Of a DNA stretch of 64,000 nucleotides, positions 17,237-19,896 are shown piece after piece (position 1 is the first letter of the stretch; each line of letters opens with the position of its first letter). The DNA comes from Ostreococcus lucimarinus (taxonomy: Eukaryota), in assembly GCA_000092065.1 (NCBI GenBank), contig CP000600.1, one strand, 5' to 3'. A model generated the notes under the pieces. The model had not been told where the DNA came from. It worked only from the letters and a program-made list of their open reading frames with translations, and made no database searches. Position numbers and translations under genes: made by a program.

Positions 17237-17481
17237 CGGGTACGCCGCGCGCGCGTCTGCGCTCGGCGGCGGCGACGCCGCGCGCGCGGTGAGTCCGAGC
17301 GTCCGCGAGTCCGCGCTCGCGCGCCGCGCGTCGACGCACCGTCGAGGAGTCGCGCGCGATGCGCGCGCAGGGACGAGGACGACGCCGCGTCGCCGTCGCG
17401 TCGCGTCGTCGGCGCCGACCCACGCATGGTCGTCTCGCGCGCGCGAGTGCGCTTCGCGACGCCATCGCGCGACGCGCGGCC

Positions 17482-17765
17482 ATGGCCAAGGGCGCGACCA
17501 AGGCGGGCGCGATCCTCGTCAAGCTCGTCAGCGCCGCGCGCACGGGATTCTTCTACGTCAAGCGCAAGAACCCGAAGAAGACGCCGAGGAAGCTCGAGTT
17601 CGTCAAGTACGACCCCAGGGTGCGACGACGACGCGACGGCGTCGCGACGCGAACGCGAGAGCCGTGTAGCGCGGTGACTGACGACGACGCCGCGAAACGC
17701 GGGACGTCGCGCGCGCGCAGGTTCGACGGCACGTGCTGTTCACGGAGACGAAGATTAACAAGTGA
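17482..17765 (+). CDS. MRPL33: Mitochondrial ribosomal protein bL33 (MRPL33-like). Two exons: join(17482..17619,17721..17765).
   Basis: [46 protein letters not shown]|[15 protein letters not shown] 101-nt intron with GTGCGA donor, CTGAC branch and CAG acceptor. It matches the Cys-less eukaryotic bL33 pattern (TGFFY..KLE..KYDP.V..HVLF.E.K). The start could instead be the upstream in-frame M at 17359. Confidence 0.75.
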
Positions 17766-17899
17766 GCGCGCCGAGCGACGACGACGACGACGCGAACGGG
17801 ATCCGTCGCGAACGCGCGCGCGTCGACGACGCGACCGCGAGCGCGTGTATGAATAACTAACGGAGAAATGAAATCGATCGACGAACGACGAACTTGGCG

Positions 17900-18415
17900 T
17901 CACGCGAATTTGACGCCGTCGTCGCCGAAAATCGCGCACCCGGGCGGACGCGCGTCTCGCCGGCGCTCCGCGACGGCGCGCGCGCGCTCGCGATCCGTCC
18001 CGAGCGCCGACGCGAGCTCGTCCATCGTGCACACCTTCCCGCTCAATCCGTACTCTTCGACGCGCGTCGTCAGCGCGTCGTCCAACGCGGCGAGATCGCG
18101 CGCGTCGACGACGCGCGCGCGCGTCGACGCGTCGTCCAACCACCTCGCGTCTCCCGACGCCACCAGCGCGTCGATCACCGCGCGTCGCGCGTCCAGCGGC
18201 AGCGCGCGCGCGAGCGTCGCGTTCACGAACGCGTCCTCGACGTCCGCGCGCACGATGGGGCTCGCGCGGCGCTTCACCGCGCTGTTTTCGCGCGTCCCGA
18301 CGGCCGTCGCGTCGGCGTCAGTCGCCTCGTGCGTCGCGATTCGCGCCTCGATTCGCGCGTCGCGCGCGCGCACCGCTTCAAGAGTTCGCCCCACATCGCG
18401 CGCTGCGCGCGCCAC
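17900..18415 (-). CDS. Hypothetical small protein (171 aa); weak call
   Basis: ORF 17900..18415 (-) has a more protein-like composition than the Arg-rich plus-strand ORFs over the same region. No family recognised. Confidence 0.25.
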   Translation of the reverse strand: MARAARDVGRTLEAVRARDARIEARIATHEATDADATAVGTRENSAVKRRASPIVRADVEDAFVNATLARALPLDARRAVIDALVASGDARWLDDASTRARVVDARDLAALDDALTTRVEEYGLSGKVCTMDELASALGTDRERARAVAERRRDARPPGCAIFGDDGVKFA

Positions 18416-19008
18416 GCCTGTTCGCGCGGCTGTCGCGTGTACGACGGCGCGTACGCCGCGAACGCGTCGAGCGCGTCATCCATCGCGCGTCCGCACAGTG
18501 ACGCGCGCGATGCCCGCGACGGCGACGCGCGTCGCGGACGCGCGCGCACGGGCGAACGCCACCGTCGCGCGCCGCGTCCGCGCGCCGCGTGCGGCGCGCG
18601 GGGCGACGCGCGCGCGCGCGACGCGCGAACTGCTCGACCTCGCCGCGCTCGTCGACGTCGTCCCGAGCGACCTCGCGCTGAGCGACGCCGAGGAGGCGCT
18701 GGGGAAGTGCGCGTTCGCGGCGCTGAGCGCGTCGAGCGCGGCGTTCGCGGGCAAGGTGCGGACGCGCGCGACGACGACGCGCGAGCGACGAGGGACGGGA
18801 CGCGCGACGACGGCGCGCGAGGGTTATGCGCGCGAGACGACGAGACGACGAGACGACGACGCGCGATGAAGACGCGAGCGACGCGCGACGACGACGGGAA
18901 AAGACGATAAAAAATACGCGAGACTGACGGGAACGAACGCGCGGCGATGGGCGCGCGCAGGCGATTTTTACGGATGAGAAACGCGCGGGACGGGGCGAAC
19001 AGATTGGA

Positions 19009-19896
19009 ATGTACGTCGGGAACGCGTCGCTGTTCGGACTGCTCGCGGCGCGGTGGATCGAGAGCGGACACTTTCCGCTGAGTAATATGTACGAGTCGCT
19101 GTTGTTTCTGGCGTGGGGGATCACGGCGGTGCACCTGGTGGTGACGGAGCGCGACGGGTTCTCGGAGAGCGCGATTCCGGGGGCGCTCGCGGGACCGACG
19201 GCGGCGCTCACGGTGGCCGGGGCGACGTTAGCGCTGCCGGCGGAGCTGCAGCGCGCCACCGCGCTCGTGCCGGCGTTGAAGAGTAATTGGTTGATGATGC
19301 ACGTGAGCGTGATGATGCTGAGTTACGCCACGTTACTCGTCGGTTCGTTGTCGTGCGTGTCGTATTTAGTCGTCGACGCGTCTCAGGATTGGGCCGCGGC
19401 GAAGGGGGCGCTGGAGAAGCTCGATAAGATGGTGTCCAACGACGGCGAGCGCGTGAGAAATAGGCCAAAAGTGAGCGTCGCCGCCGACGGCGAAACCGTG
19501 GCGGTGGAGACGATGAACGCGAGCGAGGATTACGGCGGCGAGCTCGCCATCGAGGCGACGCGCGACGGCGAACGCATCCTCACCGAGATGGACAACTTGG
19601 CCTACCGTTGCTTGGGCGCCGGTTTCACTTTGCTCACCGCGGGTTTGGTTTCCGGCGCGGTGTGGGCCAACGAAGCCTGGGGTTCGTACTGGTCCTGGGA
19701 TCCGAAGGAGACGTGGGCGCTCATCACCTGGCTCGTGTACGCCACGTATTTGCACTCGCGTCTCGTCGCCGGTTGGAGTAAAAAGGACTCGTGCGCCGTC
19801 GGTGCCGCGGGCTTTTTGGTCGTTTGGGTGTGCTACGTCGGCGTCAACCTCTGGGGCGTCGGCTTACACTCGTACGGTTGGTTCGCCAACAAGTAA
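19009..19896 (+). CDS. ccsA: CcsA (cytochrome c-type biogenesis protein, system II heme-handling WWD-domain protein), nuclear copy. It starts inside the region equivalent to plastid CcsA TM2.
   Basis: ORF 19009..19896 (+). GLLAARWIESGHFPLSNMYESLLFLAWGITAVHL and the WWD domain WANEAWGSYWSWDPKETWALITWLVYATYLHSRL...HSYGW are unmistakable. GC content and codon usage match the surrounding nuclear genes. An in-frame stop at 18925 precedes the ATG. Confidence 0.8.
   Translation: MYVGNASLFGLLAARWIESGHFPLSNMYESLLFLAWGITAVHLVVTERDGFSESAIPGALAGPTAALTVAGATLALPAELQRATALVPALKSNWLMMHVSVMMLSYATLLVGSLSCVSYLVVDASQDWAAAKGALEKLDKMVSNDGERVRNRPKVSVAADGETVAVETMNASEDYGGELAIEATRDGERILTEMDNLAYRCLGAGFTLLTAGLVSGAVWANEAWGSYWSWDPKETWALITWLVYATYLHSRLVAGWSKKDSCAVGAAGFLVVWVCYVGVNLWGVGLHSYGWFANK

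Follow-up and report, generated by a model that had tools for sequence, protein, structure and literature searches.

The stretch of DNA examined here, which we call the window, comprises 64,000 nucleotides (nt) of contig CP000600.1 from Ostreococcus lucimarinus (assembly GCA_000092065.1), and the gene of interest is ccsA, which encodes the cytochrome c assembly protein CcsA. On the plus strand, at 19009..19896, the window holds, as listed, an open reading frame (ORF) of 295 amino acids (aa) that was identified as CcsA in an original prediction made from the sequence letters without database searches. This identity is borne out by the match of the ORF, and of the longer exon described below, to family PF01578 (Cytochrome C assembly protein, Cytochrom_C_asm), which scores 206.6 bits (E = 4e-61 to 5.5e-61) against a gathering score of 29.9 and spans profile positions 1-212 of 212, as well as by an invariant WWD motif and three invariant histidines. 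The first methionine of the ORF aligns within the second transmembrane helix (TM2) of cyanobacterial CcsA, and an in-frame TGA at 18925-18927 blocks any extension upstream; the blocking stop had been noticed before, as had a start at the end of TM2 when compared to plastid CcsA, and the gene had been proposed to begin inside TM2. We find instead that this apparent start is an artefact of calling ORFs across an intron, located at 18756-18960. We consider it very probable that the window gene is a complete, functional, nuclear ccsA composed of two exons and a 205-nt phase-0 intron, and that it is the ortholog of the CcsA of Ostreococcus tauri. The gene model consists of the following parts:

18510..18755, plus strand: ccsA exon 1 (82 codons), with the ATG, a transit-peptide-like leader, the conserved mature N-terminus and most of TM1; gapless at the junction when compared to XP_022841283.1
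18756..18960, plus strand: spliceosomal intron of 205 nt in phase 0, with GT..AG ends, a branch-like motif and a site conserved in relatives
18756-18761, 18924-18928 and 18958-18960, plus strand: the intron signals read from the sequence, i.e., donor GTGCGG, motif CTGAC and acceptor CAG
18961..19896, plus strand: ccsA exon 2 (311 codons and a TAA stop), with a loop, TM2-TM8 and the WWD domain, supported by PF01578 and by the ratio of nonsynonymous to synonymous divergence (dN/dS)

When the two exons are joined, the protein reads ...AAFAGK (to 18755) followed directly by AIFTDEKRAG (from 18961), the ORF remains intact, and the precursor is 393 aa long; residue numbers (H196, H347, H385, Met99 and so on) refer to this precursor. 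Over 354 residues, the spliced window protein shares 86% identity with XP_022841283.1, the RefSeq entry of O. tauri ("Cytochrome c-type biogenesis protein CcsA", 388 aa), and the alignment has no gap at the junction. XP_022841283.1 has the same length as, and shares a 90% cluster with, the O. tauri protein OUS45823.1 (388 aa), and the latter is recovered from its own locus only when a GT..AG intron of 256 nt, lying at the homologous site, is taken out. The O. tauri intron lies between ...AVFGSK and AIFTEDKRAG, runs from GTGCGT to CAG, and carries a CTRAY motif 33 nt upstream of its acceptor. In the window, the distance from the branch-like A of CTGAC, at 18927, to the 3' splice site is likewise 33 nt, the AG at 18959-18960 is the first to follow the motif, and the blocking TGA sits within the CTGAC motif itself. 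The upstream ORF at 18510..18755, which ends AAG/GTGCGG in phase 0 and had been put forward as a candidate first exon, is thus the right exon with the right donor.

The same intron site is found in four further Ostreococcus lineages (loci L001, L007, L008 and L009) and at two Micromonas loci (L010 and L011). Across the loci that share it, exon 1 ends in a lysine and the acceptor CAG stands directly before A(I/F)FT(D/E)(D/E)KR, while the donor is GT(G/A)CG at every locus compared except that of Micromonas pusilla CCMP1545 (L011), where it is apparently GC. A CTRAY motif occurs 20-59 nt upstream of the acceptor at all loci and is the only one in each intron, save for L008, which has a second, distant one. 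The homologous introns measure 81-256 nt, frequently have lengths that 3 does not divide, and differ even within the population (204 vs 205 nt); between Ostreococcus species, 45-66% of the intron sequence can be aligned (about 57% against O. tauri). An Rfam search of the ccsA intron and gene returned no match. As a separate observation, the apparent GC intron of M. pusilla CCMP1545 (L011 2380-2545, GG663749.1) begins AAG/GCGCGT, and the NCBI model at this locus is labeled "partial", reads through the end of the intron and omits exon 1.

At the RNA level, splicing at this site is seen in a relative, a transcript-type contig of Micromonas type (L013, labeled as an MMETSP transcript), which is 1501 nt long and contains an uninterrupted ORF of 460 aa (P0019). 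P0019 lacks exactly the 67 residues that a genomic read-through (P0022) has between ...VYCYK and AFFTD, and the Micromonas-type transcript is spliced exactly at the shared intron site. As for the beginning of the gene, a longer in-frame version of the exon 1 ORF starting at 18255 was considered and set aside, as it runs into the divergent ESCRT-II gene and is interrupted in contig L004; because the upstream in-frame extension does not stay open there, we take the ATG at 18510 to be the start codon.

Exon 1 has two recognizable parts, a leader and a helix:

18510..18626, plus strand: probable chloroplast transit peptide, residues 1-39, by composition and by having no cyanobacterial counterpart
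18705..18755, plus strand: the part of TM1 within exon 1, K66-K82, the helix continuing as AIF at 18961-18969, by alignment, hydropathy and an AlphaFold helix

The leader contains 11 Arg, 14 Ala and 5 Thr residues with a single acidic residue (1 D, 0 E), has no counterpart in cyanobacterial homologues, is poorly conserved between species, and is disordered in the model of the O. tauri protein (predicted local distance difference test, pLDDT, below 50). Residues of about 52-85 (DLALSDAEEALGKCAFAALSASSAAFAGKAIF) align to the very N-terminus of cyanobacterial CcsA, with F69 invariant, and therefore exon 1 supplies TM1. The homologue of CcsA TM1 is formed by the last 17 or so residues of exon 1 together with the first 3 of exon 2, a weakly hydrophobic segment rich in Ala, Ser and Gly; in the O. 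tauri AlphaFold model a helix spans residues 32-82, with pLDDT 93-95 over the TM1 residues 61-80. The earlier description of the upstream exon as not hydrophobic was thus partly apt, in that its TM1 is weakly hydrophobic, and it missed that a TM1 homologue is present and is modeled confidently as a helix. Of the two alternatives that had been offered for the N-terminus, a truncated protein or a transit peptide and first helix supplied by an unrecognized upstream exon, it is the second that holds, with the exon at 18510-18755.

Metagenome contigs that are otherwise near-identical also revealed two small clusters of multi-nucleotide polymorphism in exon 1, located at 18692-18696 (codons 61-63) and 18588-18602 (codons 27-31). 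The former lies just before TM1 and occurs as AEEAL, AESAL, AERAL or AEETL, and the rest of the mature part of exon 1 is invariant in those contigs apart from one D/E change at codon 54.

With exon 1 joined, the protein has the full polytopic architecture of the family including TM1, and its alignment begins at residue 1 of cyanobacterial CcsA. The residues expected to handle haem are placed as follows:

19300..19302, plus strand: codon of His196, the lumen-side axial histidine, invariant and aligned to the HVSV histidine of CcsBA
19663..19719, plus strand: WWD haem-handling domain, W317-A335 (WANEAWGSYWSWDPKETWA), with invariant columns and aligned to the WWD region of Helicobacter hepaticus CcsBA 7S9Y
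19753..19755, plus strand: codon of His347, the membrane- or stroma-side histidine, invariant and aligned to a CcsBA histidine
19867..19869, plus strand: codon of His385, a lumen-side axial histidine, invariant and aligned to a CcsBA histidine

The columns of the WWD core, WGSYWSWD, are invariant in alignments with green-algal and cyanobacterial CcsA, and the three conserved histidines of the family, two on the lumen side flanking the WWD domain and one in the membrane, are all intact. We presume that His196, His347 and His385 are those named "P-His1", "TM-His2" and "P-His2", respectively, for CcsBA. The AlphaFold model of the O. tauri protein, built with 36 sequences (mean pLDDT 76.8), consists of eight long helices, and its best structural match is CcsBA 7S9Y (Foldseek E = 6.6e-08, TM-score 0.60 on the query). 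Plastid CcsA is presumed to work with CCS1 in the attachment of haem to cytochromes f and c6 (PMC5526843). By family membership, the window CcsA should take the same role with CCS1 in a System II cytochrome c synthase: the precursor would be imported and inserted in the thylakoid membrane, and the synthase would then carry haem to the lumen side, where it would be attached to apocytochromes f and c6.

The surroundings of the gene are nuclear. Gene order in the window matches that of the O. tauri nuclear scaffold KZ155785, with a NUDIX gene, a gene of unknown function, a ribosomal L33 gene, an ESCRT-II gene on the opposite strand, ccsA and a NIPA Mg transporter. The ccsA coding sequence is 67% GC, and its GC content at third codon positions (GC3) is 0.96 in exon 1 and 0.83 in exon 2, compared to 0.83-0.88 in the flanking genes. 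A tRNA gene at 1790-1950 of the window, on the plus strand (Rfam RF00005, 44.5 bits; no ARAGORN call), carries about 90 inserted nt in its anticodon loop and is probably an intron-containing nuclear tRNA. The synteny, the flanking genes, the GC3 values and this probable intron-containing tRNA identify the locus as nuclear DNA, from an Ostreococcus species that is near to O. tauri and yet separate from it.

The gene is also under selection. The index of the assembly collection lists the exact exon 2 ORF in 876 blocks, and the five contigs examined that contain it are all metagenome assemblies with the same neighbors. The exon 2 protein is 90-93% identical to other Ostreococcus CcsA proteins, with O. 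tauri, the closest named relative, at 90%. Since contigs L002-L006 were chosen by exon 2 protein identity, low diversity in exon 2 among them is partly built in, and dN/dS between species was used instead. Against four other Ostreococcus lineages, dN/dS is 0.03-0.12 for exon 2, with a synonymous divergence (dS) of 0.7-2, and 0.36-0.63 for the TM1 part of exon 1. Because the low dN/dS of exon 2 holds over so large a dS, this is a functional gene maintained for a long time under purifying selection rather than a pseudogene or a nuclear insertion of plastid DNA (NUPT). The original prediction of a nuclear, GC-rich ccsA is supported.

Two further observations concern the neighborhood. Two genes upstream of ccsA, an ORF at 17359-17856 on the plus strand matches Ribosomal_L33 (PF00471, E = 3.6e-08) and carries a long N-terminal extension; it is a second gene for a bacterial or organelle-type protein in the vicinity of ccsA, and O. 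tauri has a 60-aa L33 at that place. Between the divergent ESCRT-II ORF, listed as GTG-initiated, and the start of ccsA there are about 94 nt (18416-18509), a very compact shared upstream region.

Three other accounts of the locus were weighed against the complete two-exon nuclear gene, two of which turn on the following positions within exon 2:

19000..19002, plus strand: the CAG proposed earlier as the acceptor, within exon 2 (codon Q96) and not the main acceptor
19009..19011, plus strand: internal Met99, the start of the 295-aa ORF and not a start codon, as the codons upstream are conserved and the Met is replaced by Val in lineage L007

The protein could in principle be truly truncated, starting at the ATG at 19009 with neither TM1 nor half of TM2, and the upstream ORF unrelated to it. 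A 295-aa product is exactly what ORF callers give on metagenome contigs, and the in-frame stop at 18925 agrees with it, but all relatives retain, as protein, what the 16 codons preceding that ATG encode (AIFTDEKRAGRGEQIG), Met99 is replaced by Val in the Ostreococcus lineage L007 (GVYVGN), exon 1 codes for a homologue of cyanobacterial TM1, and a product starting at Met99 would have no targeting sequence. Both the annotated O. tauri protein and the Micromonas-type transcript contain the two parts, and we regard truncation as highly improbable. It is very unlikely, too, that the CAG at 19000-19002 serves as the acceptor for exon 1, as the original prediction had it, or that this site is a frequent alternative acceptor. 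The CAG is indeed in frame with exon 1, and, lying 42 nt beyond the true acceptor at 18958..18960, it may see some minor use in alternative splicing. Splicing there would nevertheless delete 14 residues, AIFTDEKRAGRGEQ, that are conserved across Mamiellales and present in both the O. tauri RefSeq protein and the transcript product P0019, and it is 18959-18960 that forms the first AG after the only CTRAY motif. Given that AIFTDEKRAGRGEQ is conserved and is found in the RefSeq protein as well as in the transcript, and that Met99 is not conserved, neither of these models describes the main product. The remaining account, that the segment belongs to the plastid genome or represents a recent, non-functional NUPT, draws on the fact that most green algae and plants encode CcsA in the plastid (PMC5526843). 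It has next to no probability in light of the GC content of 67% and the GC3 of 0.83-0.96, both like those of the nuclear neighbors, the presence of a spliceosomal GT-AG intron and a leader peptide, the place between ESCRT-II and NIPA that is conserved across Ostreococcus species, and the long-term purifying selection described above, with all catalytic residues intact.

Several points weigh against a spliced, plastid-targeted gene that came from the plastid genome. The exact 393-aa product was not found in the protein collection by exact look-up, and a search of that collection with the junction-spanning N-terminus retrieved only unspliced exon 1 ORFs from metagenomic DNA and no spliced Ostreococcus product. 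The assignment of residues 1-39 as a transit peptide, which is their most likely role, is read from composition. The literature searched yielded no explicit statement in the text that ccsA is absent from the plastomes of Mamiellales or is nuclear there; ccsA is not known to be present in the Ostreococcus plastome. Lastly, a neighbor-joining (NJ) tree of 118 sequences and 293 columns, which included plastid-encoded green-algal CcsA such as those of Fusochloris (P0209) and Chlorogonium (P0215), does not nest the nuclear copies within plastid-encoded green-algal CcsA and places them next to the cyanobacteria.

This last point bears on where the gene came from. In homologue searches the window CcsA falls clearly within the cyanobacterial/plastid CcsA family, and its best matches outside green algae are cyanobacterial, at about 51% identity. 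Nuclear copies are found elsewhere in Micromonas, Pycnococcus/Pseudoscourfieldia, Chloropicon primus, Prasinoderma coloniale and Euglena gracilis (the last as a transcript). The gene could thus have been acquired horizontally, from a cyanobacterium or from the nuclear copy of another alga, rather than from the alga's own plastid. Such an origin would agree with the cyanobacterial best matches, with the placement of the nuclear copies in the tree, and with the clustering of nuclear copies from very distant green lineages at 77-91% NJ bootstrap. Nevertheless, the grouping of cyanobacteria with the nuclear copies has a bootstrap of 12.5%, the clustering of the nuclear copies falls to 50% after Dayhoff-6 recoding, the amino-acid composition differs strongly between the nuclear and plastid classes (GARP 0.28 vs 0.19), and the tree is an NJ tree on 293 columns only; we judge a horizontal origin to be improbable. 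Because recoding lowers the support to 50% and the compositions differ so strongly, attraction arising from the AT-biased composition of plastid proteins is a sufficient explanation of the NJ placement. The comparison with plastid CcsA that had been called for supports membership in the cyanobacterial/plastid family, but the tree is composition-sensitive and does not place the gene within green plastid CcsA. Most likely, and as a default reading rather than a demonstrated one, ccsA moved from the plastid genome to the nucleus in the ancestor of Mamiellales or earlier.

Two possible markers of that history were tried and rejected. Monophyly of the nuclear copies, taken as a sign that the gene was transferred once, does not hold up robustly under Dayhoff-6 recoding, and intron position is not shared with Chloropicon, where the intron lies elsewhere. 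In the Chloropicon primus ccsA (L012 3065-3178, CP060754.1), the single intron, 114 nt long and in phase 2, interrupts the WWD motif (GSYW/SWDP), and since the positions differ, the Chloropicon and Mamiellales introns were gained independently. Marine metagenomes and transcriptomes further contain many unnamed nuclear-type CcsA sequences of 440-500 aa with long leaders (P0052-P0076, P0200, P0203 and P0208), and the contigs that carry them reach 862 kb. Among these sequences, one group is sister to Mamiellales at 97.5% NJ bootstrap, and P0203 is the Euglena gracilis transcript. Reviews speak of "few exceptions", yet a nuclear location of ccsA looks more widespread than this.

The closest known counterpart of the window gene is the O. 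tauri nuclear CcsA (XP_022841283.1 / CEG01976.1; OUS45823.1), an orthologue whose two exons are separated by a phase-0 intron following the TM1 lysine and whose neighbors are the same; it differs in its diverged leader and in its diverged intron sequence (256 nt vs 205 nt in the window). Compared to the plastid CcsA of green algae and land plants, e.g., that of Chlamydomonas reinhardtii, the window protein shares the family, the WWD domain, the three histidines, the eight helices and a presumed CCS1-partnered role in haem attachment (PMC5526843). It differs in being nuclear-encoded with a leader peptide, a spliceosomal intron and GC-rich codons, and its TM1 is about 4-6 kcal/mol less hydrophobic on a Hessa-type scale than that of plastid CcsA. 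Cyanobacterial CcsA ("CcsB" in NCBI/JGI), such as that of Halothece PCC 7418 (P0105), is 46-50% identical to the window protein over the whole mature protein; in contrast to the window gene, CcsA of the Halothece type lacks both leader and intron, and its TM1 is strongly hydrophobic. The fold and the WWD and histidine motifs are held in common with the CcsA half of H. hepaticus CcsBA, solved by cryo-electron microscopy (7S9Y, 7S9Z). In CcsBA, CcsB and CcsA are naturally fused into one chain of about 900 aa, whereas the window CcsA is a separate polypeptide. The other nuclear copies of the green lineage named above carry N-terminal extensions as the window protein does, and all but the euglenid type share with it a weakened TM1 of the form GK..FG.L...(Y/A)(W/.)GKA.

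This weakening of TM1 was compared across the nuclear clade. For the best 18-residue stretch of TM1, the median Hessa-type sum is 5.1 in the nuclear clade (n=22) vs 0.96 in plastid and cyanobacterial copies (n=91), the scale values being approximate; the Kyte-Doolittle scale gives the same direction with a smaller gap (1.15 vs 1.5-1.8). A Mann-Whitney test gives p = 8.5e-10, uncorrected for relatedness among sequences that are not phylogenetically independent. The hydrophobicity of TM2-TM8 does not differ between the nuclear and the plastid and cyanobacterial copies. In 20 of the 22 nuclear-clade copies, TM1 is made up of Ala, Ser, Gly and Thr flanked by lysines, and the two euglenid-type copies, one of them the Euglena gracilis transcript, keep a hydrophobic TM1 (1.6-2.0). 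The plastid import route of euglenids passes through the endoplasmic reticulum (ER). The weak TM1 agrees with the notion that post-translational import into plastids is hindered when the first helix is hydrophobic. It is possible, though we hold this tentatively, that the move of ccsA to the nucleus in algae with primary green plastids needed a weakening of TM1, which would keep a polytopic protein, now placed behind a transit peptide, from capture by the ER targeting route, and perhaps that one ancient transfer lies behind the copies of Mamiellophyceae, Pycnococcaceae, Chloropicophyceae and Prasinoderma.

A nuclear ccsA with a two-exon structure is already annotated in the sister species O. 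tauri, and nuclear copies are on record in other lineages, so the gene is already known and is not new, contrary to what the original prediction had implied. What the analysis adds is that an apparent CcsA starting in TM2 is resolved as a missed short 5' exon, with the acceptor corrected by 42 nt. ORF-based calls on Ostreococcus metagenome contigs routinely split ccsA in the same way, into a 295-aa fragment and an orphan exon 1 ORF. The weakened TM1, a side observation on non-independent sequences, offers a testable handle on why some genes for membrane proteins stay in organelles, and together with the question of one versus several transfers it provides modest leads. The window gene itself adds to the examples of hydrophobic plastid genes relocated to the nuclear genome among green algae of the picoplankton whose plastomes are reduced.

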